From Bacteroidaceae bacterium (GTDB lineage Bacteria > Bacteroidota > Bacteroidia > Bacteroidales > Bacteroidaceae), in NCBI GenBank assembly GCA_016286165.1, contig JAEESE010000006.1:78633-142632 (forward strand): a stretch of 64,000 nucleotides of DNA, in the 5' to 3' direction. Every line of letters starts with the position of its first letter. The stretch's first letter is position 1. The notes beneath the pieces were generated by a model. The model made no database searches and was not told the DNA's origin. It saw only the letters and a list, made by a program, of their open reading frames with translations. Below, in pieces: positions 8,093 through 33,938 of this stretch. The translations under genes and the position numbers were made by a program.

Positions 8093-8210
8093 CCTTATCT
8101 ATATAATTATTGTGTAATTCTTCTCTGTTGTTTCCCCTTCCTGACGGAAGGGGCACTGGGGCTTTCTTCTTTGGGCTCCCTTCGCTGACTGGAGGGGAAC
8201 GGTGGTTGGG

Positions 8211-9152: not shown

Positions 9153-10601
9153 TTATTTATTTGCCTCTCTCTGGGCGGCTTCGGTTTCGGTTATTGGCAG
9201 CGGGAAGGTGTATACTTTCTCGGCCACGGCGTCGACGTCGGAGTAGAGGATGTTGGGGCGGTTCAAGCGTTTGTAGAGGAAGAATAGCTGGCCCTCGCCG
9301 AGGAATTCGCGGCGGTATTCGCGTATGAGTTCAAGCTCGAAATCGGAGGGCAGTTCGCTCATGGCAGGCAGGTTGCGGGCTATGCGCAGCTGGTTGAGGG
9401 CAGCCCGTGCGCCGTCGGTATTGCCTTGGCGCTGCAGTACTTCAGCTCGTATGAGGTACATCTCTGAGATACGCATCAGCGGCATCTTATATCTGTAATA
9501 TGTGTTGTTGCCAGCGGGGTCATCGTATTTGGCCGTGTAGCGGTTGTTGGCATGAGTGGCTGTGCCGGATTTGAACAGGAAGGTGTAGCGATAGTCCTGT
9601 GTGGCGTTGTCGAAATAGTCGAGCAGTCGGTCGCGTGTGACGGCGAAACTGTACTGTGAGCCATCGTCGAAATAGCGGTCGGCGATATCAGCCTTGAGCG
9701 TCAGGTTGTTAAGGGCGAACAGGTGTTCGGTGGCGAAGCAGCGGTCGTAGCCGGCCTGCAGGTTGGACACTGTGGCCCATGGGAATTTCTCGGAATCGAT
9801 TACCTCGTTGGCGGCGTCGAGGGCTTGCTGGTAATCGCCTTGCCACATGTAGACGCGGGCTTCGAGGGCCTTGACGGCGTAGTAGTTGAGGTGTAGCTGG
9901 CGGTTGAGCAGGTAGCCGTTGTCGACGCTCTCGGTGATCTCGCGCCCTGTGACGATGGGGTCGGCACCTTTGAGCAAAGCCTCGGCAGTCTTCAGGTCGG
10001 CGAGCACGGCGGCAGCAGCTTCGCGCACTGTGAGCTGTGGGAAAACACGGTAGCTCAATGCGGTGGAGTAGGGGATTGATGGCTGCTCGGGATTTACGGC
10101 GAAGCTGACGCCGAAGCAGCGCAGAAGGTCGAAGTGGAGGAATGCGCGCAGGGCTATGGCTTCGCCTTTGATGACGTCGTGGTTGTCGGCCGAGAAGAGG
10201 CCGGGCTGGTCGTCGATGTGCTGAAGCAGGTTGTTGGCATTGGCGATTCCGCTATAGCTGTTTGCCCAGATAGCTCGGATGTAGTTTGTCGGGAATGAGG
10301 CGTCGTAGTTGAAGGCTGCAGCGTCGTCGTACTGGCTGGCGTAGTAGAAATCCCATTCGTGGCCGAGCACTCCGAGGAAACCGTAGGTGGCTTCTTTGGC
10401 ATAGGTGGAAGTGCTGACCATGGAGGAATAGACGCCGGCGAGGGCTTCCTTGAAGCCGCTCTCGCTCTTGAACAGCTCTGTGTCCTCGACTTGTGAGCGT
10501 GGCTGAACGTCGAGCCAGTCGTTGCATGAGGCGAGCATCGCTGCCATGATGGCGATGAATGAATAGCGGATGTATAAAGAATGATAGATTCTCATAGACA
10601 T
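9153..10601 (-). CDS. RagB/SusD family nutrient-binding outer membrane lipoprotein
   Basis: 482 aa with lipobox AMLASC followed by NDWLDVQPRSQVEDTELF. It has TPR-like helical content and lies directly downstream of SusC. Confidence 0.88.
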   Translation of the reverse strand: MSMRIYHSLYIRYSFIAIMAAMLASCNDWLDVQPRSQVEDTELFKSESGFKEALAGVYSSMVSTSTYAKEATYGFLGVLGHEWDFYYASQYDDAAAFNYDASFPTNYIRAIWANSYSGIANANNLLQHIDDQPGLFSADNHDVIKGEAIALRAFLHFDLLRCFGVSFAVNPEQPSIPYSTALSYRVFPQLTVREAAAAVLADLKTAEALLKGADPIVTGREITESVDNGYLLNRQLHLNYYAVKALEARVYMWQGDYQQALDAANEVIDSEKFPWATVSNLQAGYDRCFATEHLFALNNLTLKADIADRYFDDGSQYSFAVTRDRLLDYFDNATQDYRYTFLFKSGTATHANNRYTAKYDDPAGNNTYYRYKMPLMRISEMYLIRAEVLQRQGNTDGARAALNQLRIARNLPAMSELPSDFELELIREYRREFLGEGQLFFLYKRLNRPNILYSDVDAVAEKVYTFPLPITETEAAQREANK

Positions 10602-23129: not shown

Positions 23130-24386
23130 ATGCAAGAAAAACAATCTTCAAAAGTAATTACTCCCCTCCATCACAGGGAGGGGCAGGGGGGTGGGTCTTT
23201 TAAAGAGTTAGCCCAGCTCTACAAATCAGAGTTGCTCGATCGCGTAGTCCCCTTCTGGCTCAACAAGTCCCAGGACACCGAGTTCGGTGGCTATTTCACT
23301 TGCCTCGACCGCGACGGCTCGGTCTATGATACCGACAAATTCATCTGGCTGCAAGGCCGTGAGGTTTGGATGTTCTCCAAACTCTACAACACCGTTGAGC
23401 CACGTCAGGAGTGGCTTGATGCCGCCATCCAAGGTGCCGAGTTCCTGAAGAAGTACGGCCACGACGGCAACCTCAACTGGTACTTCGCCCTCGACCGCGA
23501 AGGACATCCCCTCGTGGAGCCCTACAACATTTTCTCCTATACCTTTGCCGTCATCGCCTTCGGTCAGCTCTCCATCGCCCTCGCTACTGCTGGACAGAAG
23601 GAAAGAAGTGAGGAGTATGCCTCTATAGCCAAACGCACCTTCGACATTGTCCTCTCCAAGACCGACAACCCGAAAGGCCGCTGGTCTAAGGCCTCACCAG
23701 GCGCACGCGCCATGAAGACCTTCGACCTTCCCATGATTCTCTGCAATGTAGCTCTCGAGATAGAATCGCTCCTCGAGCCCGCCTTCCTGCAGAAAGCCAT
23801 CGACGATTGCCTCCACGAAGTCATGGATGTCTTCTATCGTCCTGAACTTGGCCTCATCGTCGAAGCCTTGGGCAAGGACGGCAACCTCGTTGACAGCTTC
23901 GACGGTCGCAAACTCAATCCCGGTCACGCCATCGAAGCTATGTGGTTTGTCATGGACCTCGGCAAGCGCCTCAATCGTCCCGAGCTTATCAAGCAAGCCG
24001 TTGACATCTGCCTGCAGGAAGTAGAATACGGTTGGGACAAAGAGTACGACGGCGTCTTCTACTTCATGGATCGCTTGGGCAAGCCCCGTCACGAACTCGA
24101 GTTCGACCAGAAACTCTGGTGGGTACACCTCGAAACGCTTATCTCCCTCATCAAGGGCTACCAGCTCACGGGCGACGAGCGTTGTCTCCGTTGGTTCGAG
24201 CGCGTTCACGACTACACCTGGAGCCATTTCCGCGACCCCGACTACCCCGAGTGGTATGGCTACCTCAACCGTCAAGGCGAAGTCCTCCTCCCCCTCAAGG
24301 GCGGCAAATGGAAAGGCTGCTTCCACGTCCCCCGCGGCCTCCTCAACGTATGGAAGATCCTCGAAGATCTCGCTCAAAGAGGATAG
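23130..24386 (+). CDS. N-acylglucosamine 2-epimerase (AGE/RENBP family)
   Basis: 418 aa with (alpha/alpha)6-type motifs VVPFWLNKSQDTEFGGYFTCLDRDG, PGHAIEAMWF, WWVHLETL and KGCFHVPRGL. Codons 12-23 are encoded by a GC-rich palindromic element. Confidence 0.85.
   Translation: MQEKQSSKVITPLHHREGQGGGSFKELAQLYKSELLDRVVPFWLNKSQDTEFGGYFTCLDRDGSVYDTDKFIWLQGREVWMFSKLYNTVEPRQEWLDAAIQGAEFLKKYGHDGNLNWYFALDREGHPLVEPYNIFSYTFAVIAFGQLSIALATAGQKERSEEYASIAKRTFDIVLSKTDNPKGRWSKASPGARAMKTFDLPMILCNVALEIESLLEPAFLQKAIDDCLHEVMDVFYRPELGLIVEALGKDGNLVDSFDGRKLNPGHAIEAMWFVMDLGKRLNRPELIKQAVDICLQEVEYGWDKEYDGVFYFMDRLGKPRHELEFDQKLWWVHLETLISLIKGYQLTGDERCLRWFERVHDYTWSHFRDPDYPEWYGYLNRQGEVLLPLKGGKWKGCFHVPRGLLNVWKILEDLAQRG
23161..23197 (-). 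repeat. GC-rich palindromic element inside the 5' end of the epimerase ORF (encodes PLHHREGQGGG)
   Basis: The reverse complement gacccacccccctgcccctccctgtgatggaggggag aligns with 23031-23069. Confidence 0.85.
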
Positions 24387-24416
24387 GTTAACGAAAACGC
24401 ATAATTCCCCATAGTT

Positions 24417-24872
24417 ATGAAACTCGCTGAAGCTTTAAGCATCCGCAAGGATCTGCAAAAACGTATCCAACAGATAGGGAAACGTTTGGAAGATAACGTG
24501 AAGATACAGGAGGGCGACGAACCAGCCGAGAACCCGAAGGAACTGATGAAGGAATTGGACGAATGCCTGAAACAATTGGAAAACCTGATTTGGCGTATTA
24601 ACCTGACAAACGTTCAGACCGTGAATGAGGCAGGTAAGACCGTCACGCAACTGATGGCAGAGAAAGATGTACTTTCGTTACGCTTGTCGACTTTACGCGG
24701 CACTTTCGACAGGGCTTCTTCGCAACACGATCGTTATTCCCGTTCTGAAATAAAGATGATTACGGTGGTAGATGTCAAGCAACTGAGCAAGCAGATTGAC
24801 GAATACTCAGCTGCGCTACGCAAGCTTGATATGGAAATTCAGACGTTGAATTTCCAGACCGAACTCGTCTGA
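24417..24872 (+). CDS. DIP1984-family (septicolysin-like) coiled-coil protein
   Basis: MKLAEALSIRKDLQKRIQQ...ENPKELMKELDECLKQLENLIWRINLTN...RYSRSEIKMITVVDVKQL...LNFQTELV matches my memory of the DIP1984 family consensus. Confidence 0.6.
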   Translation: MKLAEALSIRKDLQKRIQQIGKRLEDNVKIQEGDEPAENPKELMKELDECLKQLENLIWRINLTNVQTVNEAGKTVTQLMAEKDVLSLRLSTLRGTFDRASSQHDRYSRSEIKMITVVDVKQLSKQIDEYSAALRKLDMEIQTLNFQTELV

Positions 24873-25114
24873 TTTCTATTGGAGACATTCACATTCATAG
24901 GGCGAACTGAAAAACAATTGGTCTCTGATCAATGCCCGTTCGGCCGGGAGCAGGCCTCCTTCTCATTGGAGAACTCACGGAGCAAGCTTAGCACGGCTGC
25001 AATCGCATGCATTGTTCATTTAGCACATTGCACTACCGTCAGTTGACTATGATTGTCGAATGTCTCCTTCCTTTGTTGTCCTTTTATAAATTGTTGTTGG
25101 CGATATAGAAGTTT

Positions 25115-25147
25115 TTCATTGATGAACCCTTGTGTTATTGGCACAAG
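25115..25147. promoter_or_regulatory. Two small palindromes (candidate operators) upstream of the WYL gene promoter
   Basis: TTCAT-TG-ATGAA (25115-25126) and CTTGTG-ttattgg-CACAAG (25129-25147), about 30-60 nt upstream of the -7 box at 25174. Confidence 0.3.
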
Positions 25148-25173
25148 CAAGATTGTTCACCTTTTCCTATTAT

Positions 25174-25181
25174 TATATTTG
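25174..25181 (+). promoter_or_regulatory. -7 box TATATTTG for the WYL-nuclease operon
   Basis: Exact TAnnTTTG match 34 nt upstream of the ATG at 25215. Confidence 0.55.
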
Positions 25182-25214
25182 CCGTAGTCATTTCCCTGCT
25201 TTTGTATTTTTACG

Positions 25215-26126
25215 ATGATTAGCAAAACTTATTATCGATATATCTGGCTGCTGAACTTGTTGCTTGATAGCGACCCTCTCACATTTGATGAGATCTGTAT
25301 GATGTGGAAAATGAATCCGGCGTTCGATGGTCCTTTACCCATCCGTACGTTCCACGAGCATCGGAAGGGCATCAAAGAGATGTTTGGCGTGGACATCGAA
25401 TGCGACCGTTCGAAGGGTAATGTCTATTACGTCAAGAATCCGGAGGTCTTGGGGAAGATGAAACTGGAGAAGTGGTTGTTGCGTAATTATAGCATTCCAC
25501 AGGACTTTGTGACCTTCAACGCTATGAAGGACCGTATCCTGCTGGAGGAGATACCGCTGGGGCAGGCTTTCTTGGATCATATCATCGAAGCGATGAAGTC
25601 GAACGTGGAACTGCGGATAGAATACCAGCGATATGAATACGGGCAGGACACTCATCGACAAACGATTCACATGCAACCATACGCCCTGAAGGTCTATAAC
25701 CGTCGTTGGTATCTGTTGGGCTATCTGAAGGAACAAGATGCCTTGCGCATCATCTCGTTAGACCGCATTCTAAGCTTGCAAGTGCTAAAGACCTTCTTTG
25801 AACTGCCTTCAAACTTCAATGCAAGGAAATACTTCGCTGATGTGGTCGGCATCTTCGTGAACGAAGATCTTCCTGTGACCAAAGTGAAGATTCGCGCCTA
25901 CGGTACTCAGGCAGAATACCTTCGCTCTACTCCGCTCCATAAAAGCCAATCCGAAGGTCGCTCCAAATATCGTGAGTTTGCAGAATTCACCTATAGACTG
26001 TGCATAACACCAGAGTTGGTCACTCAGTTGCTAGCAATGGGGGACAAGGTAGAGGTGCTGGAGCCGGAGGAGTTGAGAGAAGAGATGAAAGAAGAATTAA
26101 TTAAATGTTTAACAAATTATAAATAG
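25215..26126 (+). CDS. WYL-domain transcriptional regulator (wHTH-WYL-WCX, BrxR/CapW-like architecture)
   Basis: 303 aa. It has an N-terminal wHTH-like region (YRYIWLLNLLLDSDPLTFDEI), the WYL signature VYNRRWYLLGY, and a C-terminal extension ending ...VEVLEPEELREEMKEEL. Confidence 0.8.
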   Translation: MISKTYYRYIWLLNLLLDSDPLTFDEICMMWKMNPAFDGPLPIRTFHEHRKGIKEMFGVDIECDRSKGNVYYVKNPEVLGKMKLEKWLLRNYSIPQDFVTFNAMKDRILLEEIPLGQAFLDHIIEAMKSNVELRIEYQRYEYGQDTHRQTIHMQPYALKVYNRRWYLLGYLKEQDALRIISLDRILSLQVLKTFFELPSNFNARKYFADVVGIFVNEDLPVTKVKIRAYGTQAEYLRSTPLHKSQSEGRSKYREFAEFTYRLCITPELVTQLLAMGDKVEVLEPEELREEMKEELIKCLTNYK

Positions 26127-26130
26127 TGTT

Positions 26131-26889
26131 ATGCAAATATCAAATAAAAATGGTAAAATAATTACTTGCCTCTCAACATGGAAAGATGCTTTTATTGAAG
26201 TTGACAATCCAAAGCATTGGAAACCAGGTAGGAGCGCTCATTCTTTAGCTCTTCATTTTACACGCCCATCAATAAATGGTTCTAAAGGAATAGATGTTTT
26301 ATCGGAATATCTTGGATATCTGGGATTTAAAAATGTTTTATTCGATTATGCAGAAATAGAGCATGAGAGCCGTTTTGATACCTTCCGTGGAAATGGACGT
26401 ATTCAAGATTTAATGATTTGGGCAAAAAGCGGAAATCGCCCTTTAGCTATATGTATAGAAGCCAAGGTTGATGAAACATTTGATAAGAATGTACCAGATG
26501 CGTATAAAGAAAGAATGATTTATTCTTCCAAGAGACCTAAGAGCAAAACCCTTGATAGATTAAACTATATTTGTAAGCACTATTATAAAGTTGAACCCAA
26601 TAGTAGTGAACTGAATGATATTCGATATCAACTTCTTTACTATCTAGCAGGCTCTATCACTGAGGCCAAAAAAATTGATGGCGTTGCATTTATGCCAGTC
26701 TTTGTTTACCATACAGATTCATACAACGATCAAAATGGAGATAATAACAAAAAAGACTATGAGACATTTATCAAATCACTTAATTTTTCTTCTATAAGGG
26801 TTAATGACACAATCCAAATGTATAAGAATAAAATTGACGGCGTTGATGTTTATAGTGCATATATCGAAATAGAAAAAAATGATTATTAA
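26131..26889 (+). CDS. PD-(D/E)xK nuclease-fold protein (possibly DUF6946-like)
   Basis: It starts 4 nt after the WYL gene stop. The candidate catalytic pattern is EHESRFD ... IQDLMIW ... ICIEAKVDE (E / D / ExK). The N-terminal WKDAF...HWKPGRSAHSLALHF resembles my recollection of DUF6946. This is unverified. Confidence 0.5.
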   Translation: MQISNKNGKIITCLSTWKDAFIEVDNPKHWKPGRSAHSLALHFTRPSINGSKGIDVLSEYLGYLGFKNVLFDYAEIEHESRFDTFRGNGRIQDLMIWAKSGNRPLAICIEAKVDETFDKNVPDAYKERMIYSSKRPKSKTLDRLNYICKHYYKVEPNSSELNDIRYQLLYYLAGSITEAKKIDGVAFMPVFVYHTDSYNDQNGDNNKKDYETFIKSLNFSSIRVNDTIQMYKNKIDGVDVYSAYIEIEKNDY

Positions 26890-26970
26890 TAATTTAAAAT
26901 AAGAGATACCTTTGTAAAATCTATTTTATCTTCATTTTTAGAATAAATATATAGAATACATCTCCTTTCT

Positions 26971-27011
26971 GCGGCGTTTTTGCATAACAAACAGCAAAAA
27001 CGTCGTTTTTT
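26971..27011 (+). terminator. Intrinsic terminator of the WYL-nuclease operon (first copy of a duplicated cassette)
   Basis: gcggcgtttttgc-ataacaaaca-gcaaaaacgtcg followed by tttttt. The 12-bp stem contains one G-U pair, which is valid only on the plus-strand RNA. Confidence 0.8.
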
Positions 27012-27085
27012 GTGACTTTTCATTCGTATATATATATTTATAGGGGCTGGTATGAAAAGGTGTGCCCCATGATGTTTCACTAAAA

Positions 27086-27093
27086 TATATTTG
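27086..27093 (+). promoter_or_regulatory. -7 box TATATTTG upstream of the 101-aa acidic membrane protein gene
   Basis: Exact TAnnTTTG match 45 nt upstream of the ATG at 27138. Confidence 0.5.
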
Positions 27094-27137
27094 TATATGG
27101 CATTACATATTATTTTATTCGCGACAAAGAAGGTCGC

Positions 27138-27443
27138 ATGGAAAAGATTCTGGACGATAAGGAGTATGATAGTTATCAAATGAGAAAGGGATGCTTTCAG
27201 TTCCTGTTAGCTGCTGCTCTTATAGGCTTGGCGGTTTATGGTAGCACCATGCAAGAGCCTGAAGACTCCTCAGATGCACAGACGGAGACGCCCACAATAG
27301 AGACTGAAGAAACCATTGAAATGAAAGAGGAGGAAGCGTCATCCGAGGAAGAGGACTTAGAAGATGTAAAAACAGAAACCGAAGACACCTCTTCTGTCAT
27401 TGACGAAGATGAATTGGTACAGCGGTTCAAGGAGAATCAGTAA
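27138..27443 (+). CDS. Small membrane-anchored protein with an extremely acidic tail
   Basis: 101 aa with one TM helix (CFQFLLAAALIGLAVYG). The 62-residue tail is about 40% D/E (EPEDSSDAQTETPTIETEETIEMKEEEASSEEEDLEDVKTETED...). Confidence 0.6.
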   Translation: MEKILDDKEYDSYQMRKGCFQFLLAAALIGLAVYGSTMQEPEDSSDAQTETPTIETEETIEMKEEEASSEEEDLEDVKTETEDTSSVIDEDELVQRFKENQ

Positions 27444-27507
27444 GAATAAAAGAATAGATTTATAAACACTTAGCAGTTCGTCCGACACGTAGATAGGGCT
27501 ATGTCAC

Positions 27508-27921
27508 ATGAAAATAACTGAGAAATACGTAAACGAGTCGCATCTTGAAGAGGTTTATCAACTCTTGCATAAAGGTGAAAAGTTGATTGATCTTGACTTG
27601 GAAAACGTGAAGAGTGTGCTTGTAGGAAAAGAGGGCATTCTTTACGAGGCCTATAAAGACGGCGGTGCAGAGAATGGCGCCTTTATGGAAGAATTCTTTG
27701 ATACGGTGAAAAAGATGGAAATGGTTCAAAACTGCACAGGAATACTATTCAACATAACCATGCCGGATGATGATCAATTGATGATGGAGGATATGGACAT
27801 TATCAATTGCTTCCTCAAATTATTTGAAGAAAAGAATATGATGATTCGTTGGGGGTTAAGGGTTGATGAGCAGGGAAGCCAGACATCTATATTAATGATC
27901 TGCACTAAAGATAAACAGTAA
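27508..27921 (+). CDS. Stand-alone FtsZ C-terminal-domain-like protein
   Basis: 137 aa. By eye it aligns along its length with E. coli FtsZ residues about 205-316. The matched pairs are LIDLDLENVKSVL vs LINVDFADVRTVM, CTGILFNITMPDDDQLMMEDMD vs ARGVLVNITAGFDLRLDEFE, and TSILMICTK vs LRVTVVATG. There is no N-terminal GTP-binding domain. Confidence 0.6.
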   Translation: MKITEKYVNESHLEEVYQLLHKGEKLIDLDLENVKSVLVGKEGILYEAYKDGGAENGAFMEEFFDTVKKMEMVQNCTGILFNITMPDDDQLMMEDMDIINCFLKLFEEKNMMIRWGLRVDEQGSQTSILMICTKDKQ

Positions 27922-27982
27922 AAGTGCGGAGCCAGTATTGGGCCTTCTTACACCCAAATTCCACAAATTACATATCCTTTCT

Positions 27983-28022
27983 GCGGTGTTTTTGCACATC
28001 AAACAGCAAAAACGCCGTTTTT
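27983..28022 (+). terminator. Intrinsic terminator (second copy of the duplicated cassette)
   Basis: gcggtgtttttgc-acatcaaaca-gcaaaaacgccg followed by ttttt. The wobble pair is U-G here, versus G-U at the same stem position in copy 1. Confidence 0.8.
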
Positions 28023-28083
28023 GTATCTATTCTTTCGTATATATATAATAGAGGGCTATTCCTCTTAACGAGTAAAAGTAGTA

Positions 28084-28434
28084 ATGATGCAAGAACAGAA
28101 GACACTAACCGTGACAGACATCTTGGGCAACGCAGTCAACACACCGTTGCTCAGTAATGAGGAAGAAATCCGTATGTCAAAGAAGGTAAGAGAGGGTGAT
28201 GAGGCGGCTATCAAGGAGTTCAAACAATGCAATGCGCGCTTCGTGGCGGCAGTCGCCAAGCAGTACACCGACCGAGGCATGACCATCGACGAGCTGATGG
28301 AGGCGGGCTACGACGGACTCATAGAAGCAGCATGTAAGTACGACGAGAAAGACGGATTCAAGTTTATCAGCTATGCCGTTTGGTGGATTCGACAAAACAT
28401 TCTACAAGTCCTATTTGCACCAGCTTCGAACTAA
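28084..28434 (+). CDS. Sigma-70 family protein truncated to regions 1.2-2.4 (sigma-2 domain only)
   Basis: TPLLSNEEEIRMSKKVREGDEAAIKEFKQCNARFVAAVAKQYTDRGMTIDELMEAGYDGLIEAACKYDEKDGFKFISYAVWWIRQNI aligns colinearly with primary-sigma regions 1.2-2.4. The ORF stops 10 codons after WWIRQ. There are no regions 3 or 4. Confidence 0.75.
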   Translation: MMQEQKTLTVTDILGNAVNTPLLSNEEEIRMSKKVREGDEAAIKEFKQCNARFVAAVAKQYTDRGMTIDELMEAGYDGLIEAACKYDEKDGFKFISYAVWWIRQNILQVLFAPASN

Positions 28435-28474
28435 AAAGAATCAAATAGATAACCAATCTCAATACTTACATCTT

Positions 28475-28936
28475 ATGATTACAACAAGACTTACAACCAA
28501 GAAATCCGAATTCCGTGAGATGCTCAGCAAGCTCAACGCCCAGCAAAAGCGTCTCTTCAGTCCCGATGAGGTGGATTACCTCTCGAACTGCAATAGCTTT
28601 GAGTATCTGGAGTTCAAGCAGGAAGATGAGGATGACGATGAATTCCTCAAGCAGTTTTCCACCTGGCTGCACGAGTGCCCCAAGCATCAGGGGCACGTGG
28701 ATTACTATGTCCTGTTCTATCTCTGTATGGGCGAGACGCTGACCCGAGATCAGTTCGAGTACATGGAGCGGAACGTCGCCGAATGCTTCGACACTAGCCA
28801 CGGCTGGATCTACGAGATCAACAACCGTATTCGCTTCAAGATGCGTGTCCGTCTGATATGCAGTTACAAGAACAAGATGCGTCGTCTGACAAGAAAGGAT
28901 TGGAGAGAAGGAACTGAGATTGACGAAAACAAATGA
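28475..28936 (+). CDS. Hypothetical protein with a weak sigma region-4-like HTH (possible second half of a split sigma factor)
   Basis: The ATG at 28475 was chosen because the longer 28373 start overlaps the sigma-2 ORF. YYVLFYLCMGETLTRDQ...VAECFDTSHGWIYEINNRIRFKMR loosely resembles region 4.1-4.2 (xxVLxLRFG...xxEVGxxFGVTRERIRQIExKALRKLR). It also has an acidic stretch, QEDEDDDEF. Confidence 0.4.
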   Translation: MITTRLTTKKSEFREMLSKLNAQQKRLFSPDEVDYLSNCNSFEYLEFKQEDEDDDEFLKQFSTWLHECPKHQGHVDYYVLFYLCMGETLTRDQFEYMERNVAECFDTSHGWIYEINNRIRFKMRVRLICSYKNKMRRLTRKDWREGTEIDENK

Positions 28937-28955
28937 TTGGATTAACCGTAACGTC

Positions 28956-29849
28956 ATGAAAGAGACCACAACGAAGATATTGAAGAGACTTGTCGCCGAA
29001 GGCATGAAAATGCGCTATGGCGACAACCCTGACAGAAAAGTGAAACTGAGAATACTATGGGAGCTGAAGCATATCATAGATGCCGGCTTCGAGGGCCACT
29101 ATATCATGGTCTTTAGGTTATTCAGGCATTATGCTGAGACCGTAAAGATGGGCTATAGGGGGCGCGGCGCGATGTGTTCCTCTATTGTTTGCTACTGCTT
29201 GGGCCTCACAGAGGTTGATCCTCTGCGCTTTGGCCTTCACTCGGCTCGTTTCGTAAACGATGAGCCGCCCAAGTTTCAATTTGACTTCGAGGCATCACAC
29301 TACGATGAGTTCATGCAAGGGGCACAGCATCTGCTTGTAGCTAATGCAAAGGACTACGACATGGAGGTCGTGCGCTTGTCTCTGGATGTCACACCGATGG
29401 CATATCTGAGCAGGAAACGTGAAGCGCCAGAGCCTGAGGACCTCGATGATGAGATAGCGCGTGATGCCCTTATTCGACCTGACACGATGGACTTGTATGA
29501 TGCTTACATGCGTCGCAAAAGTGACGGGCTCTGGACGAGACATGGTGGACGTCTCGATGAGATACTGGCTCCTACCTGCGGATTTTTGGTATATCAAGAG
29601 CAAATGCTGGACATCCTTCGCCAGTTCTTTCACGTGAGCGGAATCAAGGCCAACCAAATCCGCCTGAGCATTCAACGAGGAGACACAGAGCAAGTTGAAA
29701 CTTACAAGCAGGAACTCTTTGCTCACCTCGAAGACCTCACAGAGAAAAAGGCCGAATGGCTCTGGCAACTCCTCACCAGCAATCCTCATGCCTTCCTGAA
29801 AGCTCATGCGGTTAGTCGTGTGCTGGCAAAGTGTCATTTTGAATATTAA
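28956..29849 (+). CDS. Miniature DnaE (Pol III alpha)-like protein lacking the catalytic aspartates
   Basis: Segment 1, ELKHIIDAGFEGHYIMVF...GYRGRGAMCSSIVCYCLGLTEVDPLRFGLHSARFVNDEPPKFQFDF, aligns with DnaE ELQVINQMGFPGYFLIV...[48 protein letters not shown]. Segment 2, ALIRPDT...YMRRKSDG...LAPTCGFLVYQEQMLDILRQ...ANQIRLSIQRGD...FLKAHAVSRV, aligns with the fingers region (ALFRPGP...FIDRKHG...LEPTYGIILYQEQVMQIAQ...ADMLRRAMGKKK...FNKSHSAAYA). The ATG at 28956 is preferred over the TTG at 28920. Confidence 0.65.
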   Translation: MKETTTKILKRLVAEGMKMRYGDNPDRKVKLRILWELKHIIDAGFEGHYIMVFRLFRHYAETVKMGYRGRGAMCSSIVCYCLGLTEVDPLRFGLHSARFVNDEPPKFQFDFEASHYDEFMQGAQHLLVANAKDYDMEVVRLSLDVTPMAYLSRKREAPEPEDLDDEIARDALIRPDTMDLYDAYMRRKSDGLWTRHGGRLDEILAPTCGFLVYQEQMLDILRQFFHVSGIKANQIRLSIQRGDTEQVETYKQELFAHLEDLTEKKAEWLWQLLTSNPHAFLKAHAVSRVLAKCHFEY

Positions 29850-29884
29850 TCGACAAAATAATAGTGAGAATAACAGAAAAAGTG

Positions 29885-29892
29885 TATTTTTG
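29885..29892 (+). promoter_or_regulatory. -7 box TATTTTTG for the PD-(D/E)xK / MBL operon
   Basis: Exact TAnnTTTG match 21 nt upstream of the ATG at 29913. Confidence 0.5.
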
Positions 29893-29912
29893 CAGAGTAA
29901 TAAATCGTTAAA

Positions 29913-30806
29913 ATGAATTTTATGGATAAAAAGTATTTCAAATTAAACAAGGATGCAGCATTATTTGAGTTTTTGTCTCATAAGCCTATGTGGTGGAAAT
30001 TGCTTTTAGAGGACAAGGACTTATATGTGAATATTAGAAAAGAAAACAGGATAAATGTTTATTATCGTGGAGCTTCTATAATGAGCCTTAGTTATAATGA
30101 TGGCAAGGTAACAGCTGAAATTCATAACTATTACTTGGGATTTGAGAAGGATACATGTGCTGCTTTAGGAATCAAATACGGCAATCAAAAGAAAGCCCCC
30201 GAAGAAATCGTTTGCAGACTTCCGATGATAAAGAAACGAGTAGAGGCGAACAAGAAGTACATCGCTTGTTTAGAGGAGGAAGGAATGGTAGGGAACATCT
30301 ATTCAAGTGAAAAGTATGTTCAATCACAACTCTATATGAATGATAACCATTACTTCGATACTGAATTTGCACTCAGGTTGGATGATGGCACAGATATCAG
30401 AATAGATTTGGTAAGAATGTCTGATCATGGCGAAATCTGCTTCGTGGAACTGAAATTGATTGATGACCAGCGACTTTATCCATCAAGTGGAAGAGATGCT
30501 GAGATCATTACCCAGATGGAAAATTATGAAAGATTCCTTTTAGAAGCTAATAAGTTGAAAGGAAAAACTGGTAAACCAATTCTTATCGAATATTATACAA
30601 CAGTCTTGGAAATTATGGAGAAGATAGGTATTCACCGTACATCCATTAAACCTGTAATGGTACATGACAAAGTCTTTCTCTTTATAAAACAAACCTACAC
30701 AAAGAAATCTTCAGGAAGAGAAAAACGCCTGAACACAATTAAAAAAGTATGTGATGGTTTATACTCCAATATTGATGATGTTTTAACGGATTATAATAGC
30801 CTATGA
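29913..30806 (+). CDS. PD-(D/E)xK nuclease-fold protein
   Basis: 297 aa. The candidate core is SEKYVQSQL ... IRIDLVRMSDHGEICFVELKLID (E / D / ExK spacing typical of restriction-endonuclease-like folds). Its stop overlaps the next start (ATGA at 30803-30806). Confidence 0.5.
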   Translation: MNFMDKKYFKLNKDAALFEFLSHKPMWWKLLLEDKDLYVNIRKENRINVYYRGASIMSLSYNDGKVTAEIHNYYLGFEKDTCAALGIKYGNQKKAPEEIVCRLPMIKKRVEANKKYIACLEEEGMVGNIYSSEKYVQSQLYMNDNHYFDTEFALRLDDGTDIRIDLVRMSDHGEICFVELKLIDDQRLYPSSGRDAEIITQMENYERFLLEANKLKGKTGKPILIEYYTTVLEIMEKIGIHRTSIKPVMVHDKVFLFIKQTYTKKSSGREKRLNTIKKVCDGLYSNIDDVLTDYNSL

Positions 30807-32026
30807 CCATTACCATTCATCGCGGCCTTGACCAGATAGGCGGCTGCATAACTGAGATAAGTACAGCAACGTCCCGCATCTTTGTGGATATGGGGCAGAA
30901 TCTACCAGGCAATGGTGAGAAAACCACACCGGCGCAGGACAAGGAGATGGTGGAAGGGCTGTTCAAGAACAACCCCAAAGCACATGAAGCCGTCATCTAT
31001 ACTCATGCACATGAAGATCATATAGGACTCTTTGATTATGTGCCGAAGGGCGTTCCTCAGATGATAGGAGAAGGTGCCAAGGATGTCTTGCTGGAAAAAT
31101 ACAGGTTGCTGTGCAAGGCTGATGAGGCAGCAGGAAATGACCCTGCTACAAATCTTCGGAAACGAGCAAAGCTAAAACGTTTTAAGACGTGGCCTCGAAG
31201 CCGTGATCCCAAACCATTCAGCGTTGGCGATATACAGATTACGCCCTTCTTCAACTGCCATTCCATCTATGACTCCTATATGTTTCTGATTGAGGCCGAC
31301 AGTAAGCGCGTCTGGCATATGGGCGACTATCGTCAGCACGGCTGGATGGGTGGCAAGTTGCTGCAACTGCTGAGATGGAGGGCCACGAATATCGACACCT
31401 TAATTACGGAAGGTACAATGCTTGGGCGTGAAGAGGAATGTATCACAGAAAAAGAGGTGTCTGAAAAGATGGCCCACGTGATGCGTGCCTTTAAATATGT
31501 CTTCGTACTGACCTCTGCCACAGACATTGAGCGTCTTGCCAGCATCAATTTGGCAGCAAGGCAAGTGAACAGGCCGCTCTATGTCAGCTCAGGGCTTTTG
31601 AATGCAGCAATGAAAATCTTTACTCATCGTGAAGCGAAGACACCTGGCGACCTGTTCTTTTTCAAGCCTCGTTACTATGGTGGGTTTAAGCATTTGGAAC
31701 CAATGAGAAAACGTGGTTTTGTGATGATTACCAACGTTGGAAAGTTTGTGGACATGGATAATCTTCGCCGTGAATTGCCAGAGAGTGAAACCCTACTCAT
31801 CTATTCCTCATGGGACGGCTACTACAATGACCCAGAGCAAGTGCGCCTCAATCCGATGTATGCCATGTTTCGCGGAGCGTTTCACAACGTAGTAGATATC
31901 CATACTTCTGGCCATGCCGACCGAAAGACCATCAAGCAGGTCATCGAGACCATCCATCCCAAGGAGGTCATCTGTATTCACAAAGAAAAAGGACAGTCGT
32001 TGGAGTCATTAGGAATACATTATTGA
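30803..32026 (+). CDS. Metallo-beta-lactamase fold nuclease of the beta-CASP / RNase J-like type
   Basis: Motifs HAHEDHIG (HxHxDH), FNCHS, HMGDY, the TEGT beta-CASP motif A-like element, and C-terminal HTSGHADRKTIKQVIETIHPKEVICIHKE (motif C). Confidence 0.75.
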   Translation: MTITIHRGLDQIGGCITEISTATSRIFVDMGQNLPGNGEKTTPAQDKEMVEGLFKNNPKAHEAVIYTHAHEDHIGLFDYVPKGVPQMIGEGAKDVLLEKYRLLCKADEAAGNDPATNLRKRAKLKRFKTWPRSRDPKPFSVGDIQITPFFNCHSIYDSYMFLIEADSKRVWHMGDYRQHGWMGGKLLQLLRWRATNIDTLITEGTMLGREEECITEKEVSEKMAHVMRAFKYVFVLTSATDIERLASINLAARQVNRPLYVSSGLLNAAMKIFTHREAKTPGDLFFFKPRYYGGFKHLEPMRKRGFVMITNVGKFVDMDNLRRELPESETLLIYSSWDGYYNDPEQVRLNPMYAMFRGAFHNVVDIHTSGHADRKTIKQVIETIHPKEVICIHKEKGQSLESLGIHY

Positions 32027-32155
32027 CTAGGGAACTCGATTCATGCAATATTTGAATTAAATATTTCTTTTTTAACCTGAAGAATAGGCGCGTGCCTCAT
32101 AGGGGCAAGGTTAAACTTGGCTGCCGAAAGAAAATGTATGGGCTGAGTGCTTTCC

Positions 32156-32869
32156 CTATTTTACATAGTCTGGGTCGAAGTGGCTATGGTATTCTAAGCA
32201 CAATTGTCGGTAGTATTCTCGCGTGGTGTCGCTTGTCGTGTCAGAACGGATGATCTCATAATAGTAATGTGATAGTCCTGGCTCTAGGCCGGTCTCTGTA
32301 TGGATGACGTTGTATAGCGAATCGCCCAGCACGGGTCGGCAGACGTCCTCGGGATTTGCTGCATAGAACATGCGGTAACTCTTCACCTGTACCTCTGTCT
32401 GCAAATACTCGAATGCCATGTTAAAGAGGTCGCCCCAATAGCCACGGTTGCTGGTCTGGTGCTTGTAACTGCCGAAGATACCGCGCTCAGTGGCTGTTGA
32501 TTTCACGTCGTCGATGACAATACTTATCTTATCATATTCGCAGACAACGGTGGTGCGTGCCAGATCCTTCAGCTCGAATGGCCTGGATTTATCGGAACGG
32601 CATTTGCGCTCGGCGCTCTCACGGGTCTTGTAGTCAAGAGGCGTGGTTTTACCGTTGTGGCGTGCAGCCACCTCTTCGGCAAGTGCCTGTGTCGGTGGGC
32701 CATATATTTGAGCCCACCTAATGGCCTGATCCAGTTCGGCCTGAAATTCTTTTTCTAATTGTTGCTCCGCATCGATAGGGTCGTCTTCGCGGTCGCAGGA
32801 GACGAAGAAGAAGCTGAAGGTGAGGACGGCGATCAGCATCCACAATTGTCGTAAAGATTTCATTATCAT
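32156..32869 (-). CDS. Lipoprotein with a RelA/SpoT-like (small alarmone synthetase-type) nucleotidyltransferase domain
   Basis: The start was moved to the ATG at 32869, giving MIMKSLRQLWMLIAVLTFSFFFVSC (lipobox). Synthetase-type motifs are present in order: YKTRESAERKCR, LKDLARTTVVCE, RGYWGDLF, TEVQVKSYRMFYA. Confidence 0.6.
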   Translation of the reverse strand: MIMKSLRQLWMLIAVLTFSFFFVSCDREDDPIDAEQQLEKEFQAELDQAIRWAQIYGPPTQALAEEVAARHNGKTTPLDYKTRESAERKCRSDKSRPFELKDLARTTVVCEYDKISIVIDDVKSTATERGIFGSYKHQTSNRGYWGDLFNMAFEYLQTEVQVKSYRMFYAANPEDVCRPVLGDSLYNVIHTETGLEPGLSHYYYEIIRSDTTSDTTREYYRQLCLEYHSHFDPDYVK

Positions 32870-32942
32870 GGTAAGTTTGATGTTTCTGTTTGTAAAGGTA
32901 GTGAAAAATACGTGAAAGGCATGCCCTTTAGTGGATTTTTTA

Positions 32943-32950
32943 TATCTTTG
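32943..32950 (+). promoter_or_regulatory. -7 box TATCTTTG upstream of the oxidoreductase gene
   Basis: Exact TAnnTTTG match 29 nt upstream of the ATG at 32979. Confidence 0.55.
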
Positions 32951-32978
32951 CGCCCAGAAACGATAATATCCACAACTA

Positions 32979-33938
32979 ATGAATATCGCAATCATTGGCA
33001 CAGGAAAGATTGTTCACGAGGCGCTGCCGGTGATCGTTGGGACCGAAGGCATCGTGGTGCGCAGCATCTGGTGCCGTGAGCATTCGTTGGCGAAGGCGGA
33101 GGCGTTGGCGGCGCAGTTCGGCATTCCGCAGGTTGCGACGGATTATGCAGCGGTATTGGCTGACCCACAGGTCGATACCGTATATGTTGCTCTCGTCAAC
33201 AGCGTTCATTACGCCTATGCCTTGCAGGCGTTGCAAGCAGGAAAAAACGTTATCCTTGAGAAGCCGGCGTGCATGAGTCATCGCGAGCTTGCCCGTCTGG
33301 CCGAGGAAGCGCGAGGCCGTGGGCTGATGCTCTTCGAGGCCGTCACGCTGTTGCACTTGCCCGCCTTCCATCTCCTTCAAACAGAGCTGCTGCCGCAGTT
33401 GGGCGCCATTCGCCATGTCGAGTGCAACTACAGCCAACGCTCCAGCCGTTATGATGCTTATTTGCGTGGTGAAGTGCTGCCCGCCTTCGACCCGTCGGTT
33501 GGTGGCGGTGCGCTCATGGACATCAATATCTACAATCTCCATTTCGTCATTGCCCTCTTCGGCAAGCCCGATTCAGCTCGTTACTATTGCCGTCGCGGCT
33601 TCAATGGCGTAGATTTGTCGGGGACGGTGGTGATGAACGCGCCGCTCAGCCTCTGTACTGGCGCTAAGGATACCGATGCGCCGAGCTTTGGACTGCTGCA
33701 GGGCGACAACGGATGGTTGCGCATCGAGGGACCTGTCAGCACGATGGCGGCCATGACCATTTGTCTTCGTGGTCAGCAGCCGCGACAAATTCCCCTTGCG
33801 CCCGTCAGCCATCGCCTGGCCCCCGAGTTCGCGGCCTTCGCTGATATCCTCCGTCGGCAGGACTTCGCCACGATGAACAGCCTGCTCGACCATTCCCTCG
33901 CCGTCATGAAGGTGGTGGATGAGATCGTGTCAGATTAA
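32979..33938 (+). CDS. Gfo/Idh/MocA family oxidoreductase
   Basis: N-terminal Rossmann motif MNIAIIGTGKIVHEA plus EKPACMSHRELARL, which is typical of the family. Confidence 0.85.
   Translation: MNIAIIGTGKIVHEALPVIVGTEGIVVRSIWCREHSLAKAEALAAQFGIPQVATDYAAVLADPQVDTVYVALVNSVHYAYALQALQAGKNVILEKPACMSHRELARLAEEARGRGLMLFEAVTLLHLPAFHLLQTELLPQLGAIRHVECNYSQRSSRYDAYLRGEVLPAFDPSVGGGALMDINIYNLHFVIALFGKPDSARYYCRRGFNGVDLSGTVVMNAPLSLCTGAKDTDAPSFGLLQGDNGWLRIEGPVSTMAAMTICLRGQQPRQIPLAPVSHRLAPEFAAFADILRRQDFATMNSLLDHSLAVMKVVDEIVSD

Follow-up and report, generated by a model that had tools for sequence, protein, structure and literature searches.

The window, the whole stretch of 64,000 nucleotides analysed here, comes from a rumen Prevotellaceae genome and contains an island of about 8 kb that holds genes for fragments of sigma, FtsZ and DnaE. 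Across the island the GC is 30-50%, down from about 58%. Most of the low-GC stretch is enclosed by an imperfect direct repeat of 24 nt (22/24, family D3), with its left copy at 25137..25160 and its right copy at 32994..33017 on the plus strand, the latter within the 5' end of the flanking oxidoreductase gene (GFO_IDH_MocA). The repeat pair is a possible island border. No integrase is found between the two copies (25137-33017).

All genes described below are on the plus strand. The first gene of the island (25215..26126) encodes a regulator with WYL and WCX domains (Pfam, 8e-13 and 2e-10), which also matches the PADLOC WYL model (3e-32). It is followed by variable cargo, a DUF6946 protein (26131..26889; Pfam, 3e-24) of the PD-(D/E)XK nuclease clan; the family belongs to clan CL0236 (PMC10584680). 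In other loci the position of this gene is filled by REase-ARP or unidentified genes. At the far end lie ORF6 (29913..30806, 297 aa), variable cargo with no family match, and a gene overlapping it by 4 nt (30803..32026), which encodes an RNase J-like beta-CASP nuclease of the metallo-beta-lactamase fold (Pfam Lactamase_B_2 and RMMBL; NCBIfam RNase J family, 5.5e-17). Reading by eye, we see in ORF6 a candidate PD-(D/E)XK-like motif, D...ELK, and its homologues are paired with an MBL gene in L020 and L029. The beta-CASP nuclease, with homologues in 13 of 27 species loci and additionally in L051, L054 and L056, is a recurrent part of the cargo and the likely effector of the island.

The five ORFs in between had been singled out in the original prediction. 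They are present where predicted, and the same ORFs are called on independent contigs. ORF1 (27138..27443, 101 aa) combines one hydrophobic stretch, at residues 18-34, with a 64-aa acidic tail (40.6% D/E), in agreement with the membrane-anchored protein with about 40% D/E in its tail that had been described. Homologues of ORF1 are located before homologues of ORF2 in L016, L017, L051 and L127, while in L150 the ORF1-type gene is interrupted by the contig end. The pair of ORF1 and ORF2 is an extra feature of the clade of the window.

ORF2 (27508..27921) is, as predicted, a stand-alone FtsZ C-terminal domain. Its family profile, run against 1.84 billion proteins, retrieves the FtsZ P0269 (442 aa, with Pfam Tubulin and FtsZ_C) over residues 206-318 with an E-value of 9.2e-6, and pairwise BLASTP against FtsZ gives an E-value of 1e-7. 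In this alignment LIDLDLENVKSVL is aligned to IINLDFNDVKTVL, so the T7-loop motif of ORF2 reads DLDLEN. Pfam, a PDB sequence search and a low-confidence AlphaFold model do not by themselves show the relation to FtsZ. The proposed change of D212 to Asn in the T7 loop stands only in part: the DLDLEN reading is correct, but the Asn is specific to the window clade, and at least 90% of 53 family members carry Asp in this column. The GTPase domain is absent from ORF2, and the T7 motif LDxxDV is kept in at least 90% of its family. At least 91 clusters make up the family of stand-alone FtsZ-C proteins, and we know of no member that has been studied. ORF2 is confined to one clade and is therefore placed outside the core of the module.

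Natural inhibitors of FtsZ, such as MciZ, SulA and Kil of phage lambda, act at filament ends or interfaces. ORF2 differs from these in being a homologue of FtsZ and not an unrelated peptide. Since it keeps LDxxDV and has no GTPase domain, it could bind the GTP face at a filament end and block growth of the filament. It resembles engineered dominant-negative fragments of FtsZ in offering one longitudinal face, made up of the T7 loop and the C-terminal domain; fragments that span the longitudinal interfaces inhibit the growth of E. coli (PMC9245647). Extended to all fragments, the same idea makes them effectors of abortive infection, or toxins, that poison host machines: ORF2 would cap FtsZ filaments, the sigma fragment would compete with sigma-A for core, and the DnaE fragment would disturb replication. 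The leading position of the WYL gene would suit tight repression of toxic genes. We consider this quite unlikely for the island as a whole, and the restriction of ORF2 to one clade speaks against it. A dominant-negative role is plausible for ORF2 and weak for the DnaE fragment.

The sigma fragment (mini-sigma, 28084..28434, 116 aa) consists of sigma-70 regions 1.2-2.4 only, just as had been read from the sequence. It matches the Pfam families Sigma70_r2 (1.9e-11) and r1.2 (5.8e-6), with no match past region 2.4. The mini-sigma of the window retains the region 2.3-2.4 motif GFKFISYAVWWIRQ, which most copies conserve; in some small sigma copies the melting residues are altered (WW to WV or WF, Q to M or T). 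Across loci, regions 1.2-2 occur with or without region 4, and the island sigmas form a graded series: at one end are full-length proteins of 266-290 aa with regions 1.2-4, at the other those that consist of region 2 alone. Region 2 of sigma binds the beta-prime clamp helices and the non-template strand of the -10 element, and region 1.2 reads the discriminator. A region-2 fragment should thus bind the clamp helices, as a poison of RNA polymerase would; however, the sigmas with region 4 or of full length found in many loci look like working proteins.

The sub-operon of ORF1 and ORF2 and the sigma operon are each headed by a copy of the same cassette. In copy 1 (26966..27046, plus strand) the hairpin arms at 26971-26983 and 26994-27006 are followed by a T-run and by CGTATATATATATTTATAGGGG at 27025-27046. 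In copy 2 (27978..28065, plus strand) the arms are at 27983-27995 and 28006-28018, followed by a T-run, by CGTATATATATAATAGAGG at 28036-28054 and by a small 5' hairpin, AGAGGgctattCCTCT, at 28050-28065. The order in the cassette is terminator hairpin, TATAAT-like TA-run, GAGGG and short 5' hairpin. The duplication of a terminator and AT-rich cassette of about 85 bp, claimed in the original prediction, is confirmed: the spans 26957-27036 and 27969-28047 are 87-91% identical, and a cassette 19-mer has 2 matches where 0.05 are expected by chance. The accompanying claim, that the stems differ by a G-U to U-G swap at the same position, is not correct, as two adjacent pairs differ (G.U/C-G versus G-C/U.G). 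A 16-mer of the cassette is restricted to these islands, with 1-3 copies per locus and on the coding strand in every case, and 25 further true cassettes are found in metagenomes. Of 45 genes that come first after a cassette, 26 are sigmas and the others belong to the cargo.

A host-type box, TAnnTTTG, is found upstream of the WYL gene (-41), ORF6 (-28) and ORF1, while the 150 nt before the start codon of the sigma gene contain none. Having its own host-type box, the ORF1-ORF2 sub-operon need not depend on the mini-sigma. In the cassette the mini-sigma would have two candidate targets, a -10-like element and a G-rich discriminator, the kinds of promoter element that regions 2 and 1.2 recognise. 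Alternatively, the TA-run may serve the WYL protein as an operator or a different host sigma as a promoter.

We know of no cellular genome in which a sigma with region 2 only has been proven to function. In phage T4, gp55 is a sigma of this type and uses, together with co-factors, a promoter with only a -10 element. The possible likeness to T4 late transcription (the minimal sigma gp55, the co-activator gp33 and the sliding clamp gp45) would include a sigma reduced to region 2, an extended TA-rich -10-like element with no obvious -35, here in a putative promoter, and accessory proteins that stem from the replication machinery or are connected with it. In contrast to T4, the module is located on a chromosomal island and not in a phage, and in place of gp33 and the clamp it has a DnaE fragment and an FtsZ-C-like domain. 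Reading by eye, we noticed no clamp-binding motif in the island module.

The gene after the mini-sigma, ORF4 (28475..28936, 153 aa), had been described as weakly similar to sigma region 4. It is instead a second, divergent FtsZ-C-like domain. The AlphaFold model is confident (pLDDT 87, pTM 0.82) and shows an alpha/beta domain, whose best matches in the PDB are FtsZ, reaching a probability of 0.98 although the scores are weak (E 7e-3, TM 0.45). Further, hhalign of the ORF4 family profile against the stand-alone FtsZ-C family gives a probability of 92.5% and an E-value of 4.8e-7. The fold of the model and these profile and structure matches rule out a region-4 HTH. The T7 motif is lost in ORF4. 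An FtsZ-C-like partner is found in 18 of 27 loci and missing from about a third; it lies upstream of the DnaE fragment or nearby in 14 (one on the opposite strand), just downstream in 3, and is fused to it in 1.

The DnaE fragment (mini-DnaE, 28956..29849, 297 aa) comprises the first half of the palm and part of the fingers of Pol III alpha. The two segments that had been predicted match Pfam DNA_pol3_alpha at profile positions 2-118 of 260 (5e-20) and the finger profile at positions 60-162 of 166 (4e-14). By our own mapping of the named domains, the retained segments include neither PHP nor the C-terminal domains, and the rest of the palm, the thumb and the beginning of the fingers are deleted. 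A full-length DnaE has about 1,100-1,200 aa, and the motifs best conserved in the mini-DnaE correspond to well-conserved ones in it: RGAxxSS...LGLTEVDP, RFVN, the catalytic strand, YQEQ and FLKAHA. However, the catalytic strand is D-x-D in the full-length protein and Q-x-D in the mini-DnaE, where PKFQFDFE aligns with PDIDIDFD of M. tuberculosis DnaE1. In E. coli numbering, which is again our mapping, D401 corresponds to an invariant Gln and D403 to a position that is Asp in at least 90% of the family. The claim that the palm aspartates are replaced thus applies to one of the two aligned residues; the other is kept, and the segment that would carry the third is deleted. DNA polymerisation by the mini-DnaE is almost certainly impossible. 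By our own domain mapping, the known binding regions of DnaE for the clamp, tau and epsilon all lie outside the two retained segments, which argues against the mini-DnaE as a poison of the replisome.

Every ORF spans only a part of its parent protein, so one might regard them as functionless, decayed remnants of sigma, ftsZ and dnaE genes. This is refuted by the conservation data, and we give it next to no credence. Purifying selection acts on all five ORFs, at an overall dN/dS of 0.15-0.4 (gene by gene: ORF1 0.3-0.56, ORF2 0.24-0.42, mini-sigma 0.16-0.30, ORF4 0.14-0.30 and mini-DnaE 0.21-0.28). Lengths and reading frames are maintained down to 47% identity in 27 species, and hundreds of equally short homologues exist. 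The mini-DnaE family has 490 database matches, and the best 120 of these have 266-423 aa, nearly all below 320 aa. The pieces of FtsZ, sigma and DnaE are stand-alone, selected genes. In this the original prediction was right, with the exception of the region-4-like protein, and matches to Sigma70_r2 and DNA_pol3_alpha and, through the family profile of ORF2, to FtsZ are all found.

Gene order is conserved as well. The trio of sigma, FtsZ-C-like protein and mini-DnaE is syntenic in 27 species genomes of rumen Bacteroidales, so the homologues are not scattered, as a search proposed with the original prediction might have found. In nearly all loci for which flanking sequence exists, the mini-DnaE has a sigma-like gene as its neighbour, and a WYL homologue is located upstream of the trio in 21 out of 22 loci with enough upstream sequence. 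Around the trio the nuclease genes, PD-(D/E)XK types and beta-CASP, are interchangeable. In-frame fusions join sigma to mini-DnaE (P0088, a cluster of 18 member sequences), mini-DnaE to the FtsZ-C-like domain (L037) and mini-DnaE to WG repeats (L032-L034, L041 and P0046). These fusions argue for the trio as one complex and not for three separate targets, as dominant-negative effectors would have. Within islands the families have also diversified into paralogues, with two or three copies of sigma, a DnaE-palm fragment of a second type and FtsZ-C-like domains of several types.

Such diversification would fit fragments that are decoys or guards and mimic host surfaces hit by phage takeover proteins. 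A phage inhibitor that binds the decoy would free or activate the nucleases, possibly via release of the mini-sigma, which overlaps with our preferred explanation below. One conserved module represents three different essential machines, conserved surface and active-site motifs of the parent proteins survive in the fragments, some mini-DnaEs carry sensor-type WG repeats, and the cargo consists of variable nuclease effectors. However, the loss of the T7 motif in ORF4 does not fit, the retained segments of the mini-DnaE are not known interaction surfaces, and for a pure decoy both the island-specific TATAAT-type cassette and the full-length sigma paralogues would be superfluous. It also counts against this explanation that we know of no phage inhibitor of sigma, FtsZ or DnaE for Prevotellaceae. 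We regard it as unlikely.

The island type is restricted to rumen Prevotellaceae and related Bacteroidales. Related islands occupy different chromosomal sites, and their flanks are housekeeping genes that differ from locus to locus. Together with the low GC and the bracketing repeat, which has one copy inside a target gene, this could indicate a small non-autonomous mobile element, a satellite or integrative mobilisable element, which would rely on a sigma and on polymerase-derived proteins of its own to complete its life cycle or to hijack a helper. A gene for a VapE-like primase-helicase adjoins the WYL gene in one locus, and the mini-DnaE scores slightly higher against a phage DnaE family than against bacterial models. 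However, genes for an integrase, a replication initiator, packaging or phage structure are found in none of the flanks and loci examined, and neither phage genes nor an integrase place the block inside an intact prophage, which the original prediction had named as a case against itself. Further, 2.9 million viral contigs and 50,697 phage records contain no mini-DnaE, only full-length DnaEs of about 30% identity. In several related species the island occupies the same site, downstream of the GlcNAc 2-epimerase gene, and this fits long residence or a hotspot. A cryptic phage or satellite origin is disfavoured, and we hold the mobile-element explanation to be very unlikely. The rAID-1, integron-like arrays of Bacteroidales (bioRxiv 10.1101/471110) share the skewed GC and a repeated intergenic sequence before successive cassettes, but their XerD-type recombinase is absent here, there are 1-3 cassettes per island, and they carry immunity genes where the cargo here is nucleases and fragments of housekeeping proteins.

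Defence operons are known to be controlled by the WYL regulators CapW and BrxR. A dedicated ECF sigma and anti-sigma pair, DdvS/DdvA, controls a CBASS-CRISPR island (PMC11506125). The island resembles these systems in the WYL/WCX protein at its head and in the dedicated sigma beside nuclease-type cargo. It differs in that its sigma is a truncated, group-1/2-like protein and not an ECF sigma, in having no transmembrane anti-sigma, and in its cargo, which matches no known defence system in PADLOC. Among the PADLOC defence models, the WYL model and a generic sigma match to MzaA are the only matches, so the label of defence rests on context. As had been suspected, no described system with this gene set was found in PADLOC or in the literature.

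The constant WYL protein, the variable nuclease cargo, the island-specific cassette and the fusions point to a regulatory or sensor role of the trio. Our preferred explanation, which we hold tentatively and with rather less than even confidence, is a WYL-associated, defence-type island in which the mini-sigma drives the cassette promoters and the mini-DnaE and FtsZ-C-like proteins act as sensor or gate. The mini-sigma would bind the host RNA polymerase core and recognise the -10-like element and the G-rich discriminator of the cassette. The roles of its two partners, which in complex with sigma would form the gate or sensor, are guesses from the fusions and the WG-repeat extension. Several points speak against this explanation: a sigma operon with positive feedback behind a terminator needs a basal input, about a third of the loci lack ORF4, some small sigmas have altered melting residues, and ORF1-ORF2 has a host-type box of its own. 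The WYL protein would set the baseline level of expression. The island would then be a self-contained, defence-type expression switch with nuclease expression as its output. In the clade of the window, the FtsZ C-terminal domain would be a further output, which could cap FtsZ filaments and halt division.

The five genes of this analysis, ORF1 (27138-27443), ORF2 (27508-27921), the mini-sigma (28084-28434), ORF4 (28475-28936) and mini-DnaE (28956-29849), occupy 27138-29849 in a region of low GC: host DNA has 55-62% GC, and this falls to 30-50% between ~24.4 kb and 33.0 kb of the window. Upstream, a DIP1984/DUF6847 gene (24417-24872; NCBIfam 7e-55) lies between an epimerase gene and the island, and is followed by the genes of a WYL+WCX regulator (25215-26126) and of a DUF6946 protein (26131-26889), whose family has been placed in the PD-(D/E)XK nuclease clan (PMC10584680). 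Downstream come ORF6 (29913-30806), which encodes 297 aa with no family assignment and overlaps its neighbor by 4 nt, and the gene of a beta-CASP metallo-beta-lactamase nuclease (30803-32026). All are on the plus strand. Genes of carbohydrate metabolism flank the island; the 64-kb window contains no tRNA, and 24000-33000 has no match to an Rfam RNA family.

A 24-nt direct repeat (22/24 matching) at 25137-25160 and 32994-33017 brackets most of the low-GC stretch. The first codons of a flanking GFO_IDH_MocA oxidoreductase gene hold the right copy; an orphan piece of the 5' end of that gene forms the left copy. The repeat looks like a target-site duplication flanking a 7.9-kb island without integrase. 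The same site, downstream of a GlcNAc 2-epimerase gene, is found in four related loci, and in general the related islands are flanked by housekeeping genes that differ from locus to locus. In three related loci (L016, L017 and L020) the DIP1984/DUF6847 gene is missing and the WYL gene comes straight after the epimerase gene.

One alternative is that the genes belong to a cryptic phage or satellite. In the flanks examined there are no integrase, replication-initiator, packaging, structural, phage or conjugation genes. Further, a scan of viral contigs gave no mini-DnaE and only one distant relative (34% identity over the palm segment), and phage records gave only full-length DnaEs at ~30% identity. 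We consider a function in a mobile element improbable.

The conserved and selected unit is a module of a sigma fragment, an FtsZ-C-like protein and mini-DnaE, linked by gene fusions, with a WYL gene at its head and exchangeable nuclease genes around it. When one genome per species is scanned for mini-DnaE, 27 loci are found, all from rumen Prevotellaceae or 'Bacteroidaceae' MAGs and the isolate Prevotellaceae bacterium HUN156, locus L031. The gene order in these loci is conserved: WYL/WCX, variable cargo, an intergenic terminator cassette, sigma, FtsZ-C-like and mini-DnaE, in many cases a 67-72-aa ORF and in some a full-length sigma, then a variable partner gene and the beta-CASP nuclease. Of the 22 loci whose upstream DNA is long enough, 21 have WYL; the FtsZ-C-like partner is present in 18/27 (14 upstream or nearby, three directly downstream, one fused) and the beta-CASP gene in 13/27. 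The cargo between WYL and the cassette is of several kinds: DUF6946, REase-ARP, metallophosphatase and unknowns.

The fusions are all in frame. Sigma is fused to mini-DnaE in a 423-aa database protein (P0088) from a cluster of 18 member sequences. Mini-DnaE is fused to the FtsZ-C-like protein in locus L037, and as the junction sequence is unlike the unfused relatives this is not a simple frameshift. In a third type, mini-DnaE carries 2-6 C-terminal WG beta repeats (L032-L034, L041 and the protein P0046). These repeats match Pfam PF14903, down to 1e-57, and the mini-DnaE ORFs of L032, L033, L034 and L041 start near 9989-10001.

Two neighborhoods contain additional genes. At 6713-7897 of L014 a VapE-like/DUF5906 gene of primase-helicase type is located directly upstream of WYL, the sole replication-type gene in any island seen. 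Near the island of L011 there are a DUF3791-DUF3990 pair and an MNT-HepT toxin-antitoxin pair (12060-12949 and 20162-20792), which fits a neighborhood of conflict genes.

Isolated fragments of housekeeping genes could also be decay remnants, that is pseudogenes or debris. This is excluded: compared with the two closest loci all five genes show a dN/dS of 0.15-0.4, which indicates purifying selection.

The mini-sigma consists of sigma-70 regions 1.2 and 2 only, as proposed from the sequence (Pfam Sigma70_r2 1.9e-11, r1.2 5.8e-6). It aligns to SigA ~109-199 in solved holoenzyme structures, and also to RpoS structures. The region 2.3-2.4 motif FKFISYAVWWIRQ (WWIRQ) is intact, and the residues for core binding and -10 melting are retained. 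The chain stops six residues past region 2.4; regions 3 and 4, used for -35 recognition and beta-flap binding, are absent. Across the loci the sigma proteins form a size series, from 266-290 aa (regions 1.2, 2, 3 and 4) over 206 aa (1.2, 2 and 4) and ~125 aa (2 with a short 4) down to the smallest, of 116 aa (1.2 and 2).

ORF1 and ORF2 occur as a pair only in the clade with a sigma of 115-116 aa. ORF1 contains a single hydrophobic segment, at residues 18-34, and of the 64 aa in its tail 26 are D/E (40.6%), in agreement with the estimate of about 40%. ORF2 (137 aa) had been described as a stand-alone FtsZ C-terminal domain, and this is what it is. An exhaustive search of its family profile against 1.84 billion representative proteins gives 91 clusters at E up to 0.001, mostly stand-alone proteins of 130-140 aa, and genuine FtsZ is also among the matches: P0269, a 442-aa protein with the Pfam domains Tubulin and FtsZ_C, is retrieved over residues 206-318 at E 9.2e-6. 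In a pairwise BLASTP the two proteins align over 111 residues with E 1e-7, LIDLDLENVKSVL being opposite IINLDFNDVKTVL. The alignment begins at the T7 loop, and ORF2 has no match to the Tubulin domain, i.e. the N-terminal tubulin/FtsZ GTPase domain.

It should be noted that only the exhaustive profile search, followed by BLASTP, settled this identity, while the other searches were silent. ORF2 has no match in Pfam, NCBIfam, PHROGs or PADLOC, and a sequence-profile search of the PDB does not give FtsZ. Its AlphaFold model is poor (pLDDT 51), with Foldseek matches (Alba, IF3-like) that are not meaningful, and an hhalign comparison of the close ORF2 family with E. coli FtsZ, using an approximate sequence, is not significant.

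The T7 loop of ORF2 reads DLDLEN, with Asn for the second Asp, just as had been seen by eye. This Asn is found in the clade of the window only; in the 53-member family alignment the motif is LDxxDV and the column is Asp in at least 90%. A conserved T7 motif in the family is what makes ORF2 the most credible case for the reading of the isolated domains as dominant-negative effectors, and fragments of the FtsZ interface are toxic in E. coli (PMC9245647). As an account of the genes we find this reading doubtful.

A homologue of ORF2 with 48% identity is found in uncultured Prevotella (L044-L047, ~8001-8414), where it follows the genes of a 1,024-aa CHAT protease and an AAA ATPase. The ORFs around it are small and unannotated and form a long series on one strand; neither sigma nor mini-DnaE is nearby.

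ORF4 was originally read as a weak sigma region-4-like HTH, which has to be abandoned: Sigma70_r4 is matched by 0/29 family members, and the AlphaFold model (pLDDT 87, pTM 0.82) is an alpha/beta domain with a beta-alpha-beta sandwich. Against the PDB the best structural matches are almost all FtsZ, with a probability up to 0.98 but a modest E of 7e-3 and a TM of 0.45 over ~130 columns. When a viral structure library is searched, FtsZ does about as well as RusA-like resolvases, so the structure alone gives the fold class only. The identity was decided by profile comparison: in hhalign, the ORF4 family and the broad family of stand-alone FtsZ-C proteins align with a probability of 92.5% and E 4.8e-7 over 103 columns. 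In addition, the HMM of the broad family matches ORF4 homologues at 1e-4 to 1e-5. The comparison is significant only with this broader family, as the narrow ORF2 family gives E 0.064. The locus has two FtsZ-C-like genes, ORF2 close to FtsZ and ORF4 divergent, with the T7 motif lost. Two other matches of ORF4 were discarded, a weak one to PHP (E 0.004) that is present in only 2/29 family members, and a spurious PDB sequence match to a designed repeat protein.

Mini-DnaE matches the Pol III alpha palm model over the first 118 of its 260 positions (2-118, 5e-20) and the finger model over positions 60-162 of 166 (4e-14); in M. tuberculosis DnaE1 the counterparts are residues 315-427 and 632-783. 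The palm aspartates were initially thought to be replaced. This is correct for the D401 position, which is Gln, while the D403 position is still Asp (PDIDIDFD vs PKFQFDFE), according to our own mapping onto E. coli numbering. Gln108 and Glu112 do not vary among 24 members of the family, at least 90% of which have Asp110; the stretch due to hold the third palm Asp is deleted. As only palm and finger models match, mini-DnaE contains neither the three catalytic palm aspartates as a set nor the PHP, thumb, clamp-binding and OB domains. Judged by its sequence, it lacks two of three catalytic carboxylates and most Pol III alpha domains. The family has 490 matches, and the best 120 of these are 266-423 aa, nearly all below 320 aa, and 55-92% identical. 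A probable remnant of a duplicated or replaced copy is seen in L016, where a second, short match to the C-terminal 33 residues (12021-12119, 73% identity) is located ~1.1 kb downstream of the intact gene.

None of these proteins qualifies functionally as a member of its parent family: ORF2 has no GTPase domain, the sigma no regions 3 and 4, and mini-DnaE is without two carboxylates and most domains.

The sub-operons of the island are punctuated by an island-specific terminator/TA-run cassette. In the window it is indeed duplicated, at 26957-27036 and 27969-28047, with 87-91% identity, and a 19-mer from it occurs twice in 64 kb, compared with 0.05 times expected by chance. A 13-bp stem closed by a 10-nt loop is followed by a T-run, a spacer of ~20 nt, TCGTATA(TA)n leading to (A/G)GAGGG, and a small 5' hairpin, which in copy 2 is AGAGGgctattCCTCT. 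In most related loci the cassette also precedes the sigma gene, and it is found ahead of some cargo operons too. In all DNA fetched, its 16-mer core CTGCGGYGTTTTTGCA is confined to these islands; each locus has 1-3 copies, all of them on the coding strand. A metagenome scan adds 25 further true cassettes, amid chance matches.

For 45 distinct cassettes a downstream ORF could be called. The first gene is sigma in 26/45, ORF1-type in 6/45, an ORF2 homologue in 1/45, a recurrent 166-aa protein in 8/45, and other cargo in the remainder. The 166-aa protein has weak in-register matches to the DnaE palm segment of mini-DnaE, which are below threshold (E 0.003 and 0.02), and carries SLVPFILGIT, similar to the LGIT motif of DnaE and mini-DnaE. 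It is found in L029 (~4650-5150, minus strand), L072, L073, L079, L086 and L126; in L029 the gene is upstream of an ORF6-like gene and the beta-CASP nuclease.

In a survey of 46 distinct hairpins, 92% of the stem positions are Watson-Crick, the closing pair left out, and three sequences have a compensatory U-A at one position. At least five of the eight bases after the stem are T in 42/46. A generic terminator scan did not call these hairpins because of the 10-nt loop. The left stem arm is invariant, which limits tests of covariation, and a shuffle control was not significant. Selection on the plus-strand RNA was proposed from a swap at the same pair of the two stems in the window; the differences are in fact at adjacent pairs. 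The proposal itself is weakened. G.U outnumbers A.C by 29:3, but base composition alone predicts ~77:23, since the conserved arm is G/T-rich and neutral transitions already give this ratio, so the argument is suggestive only (p about 0.05).

The conserved arm, TCTGCGGYGTTTTTGCA, could be a protein-binding site. It reads CTGCNN-N5-TTGCA in the window (26969-26984 and 27981-27996) and in L014, L031, L035, L037 and L039. It is similar to a sigma-54 -24/-12 element, but the GG dinucleotide is missing and the TA-run is ~40 nt further downstream. The motif TTTTTGCA has a spacing of ~40 nt from CGTATA, which is kept even in three loci assessed by eye that have a differently built hairpin. The TA-run with GAGGG looks like a -10 element with a G-rich discriminator. 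The Bacteroidetes -7 box TAnnTTTG is found in the window upstream of WYL (-41), ORF1 (-52) and ORF6 (-28), and not before the sigma operon, where the cassette stands alone.

As originally stated, no described system of this kind is known: the literature, searched for this set of genes, for DUF6946 with REase-ARP and for FtsZ, sigma or DnaE decoys, gave nothing relevant. PADLOC, including Mza, matches no system; it gives WYL models, a generic match of the sigma domain to MzaA and weak Cas8c matches of mini-DnaE (E 0.005 and 0.011), and nothing for ORF1, ORF2, ORF4, ORF6 or the metallo-beta-lactamase. In its composition we regard the module as categorically new. One of the nearest working analogies is T4 gp55, which acts with co-factors; the island sequence would be compatible with a similar region-2-only sigma on a -10-only promoter (a TATAAT-like run and GAGGG, no host-type box). 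The other is the CBASS-CRISPR island of Myxococcus, which is under sigma control (PMC11506125). With rAID-1, the integron-like arrays of Bacteroidales (bioRxiv 10.1101/471110), the island shares repeated intergenic cassettes and GC skew, nothing more; rAID-1 depends on a tyrosine recombinase, and no recombinase was seen in any island locus examined.

The cassette element, the WYL gene and the nuclease cargo suggest a dedicated expression switch of defence type, a reading that we hold tentatively. Regions 2 and 1.2 of sigma-70 read the -10 element and the discriminator. The mini-sigma would thereby read the cassette, region 2 recognizing the -10-like TA-run and region 1.2 the G-rich GAGGG. This putative promoter is unlike the -7 box of the host, and nothing else ahead of the sigma operon looks like a promoter. 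The role of gate or sensor would fall to mini-DnaE together with its FtsZ-C-like partner, and the WG-repeat extensions accord with a sensor role. That the fragments instead serve as decoys or guards for phage proteins partly overlaps with the expression switch, and appears rather unlikely to us.

A more specific form of the switch can be proposed, in which the trio is a nucleotide-dependent immune switch built from parts of three housekeeping machines. FtsZ subunits insert the T7 loop into each other's pocket in trans. Here mini-DnaE would retain a nucleotide-binding pocket without a full catalytic site, and a T7-type acidic loop of the FtsZ-C-like partner would enter this pocket in trans, as between FtsZ subunits. 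The state of the composite site would gate the region-2-only sigma, which in turn would redirect host RNA polymerase to the island-specific promoters. That all of these steps hold jointly is a long shot.

If the module acts as a unit, domains of sigma, FtsZ and the replicative polymerase have been excised, kept by selection and rewired into a function of a mobile island, and we know of no description of such an event. The mini-sigma would then be a natural cellular sigma cut to regions 1.2-2, making minimal promoter recognition testable outside phage T4. Further, capping of filaments may be the natural role of the stand-alone FtsZ C-terminal domains, a family of at least 91 clusters, and such proteins could serve as probes or help in the search for division inhibitors. 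For rumen Prevotellaceae, whose defence repertoire is to our knowledge poorly studied, the island with its modular nuclease cargo is one more candidate for an immune or regulatory system.
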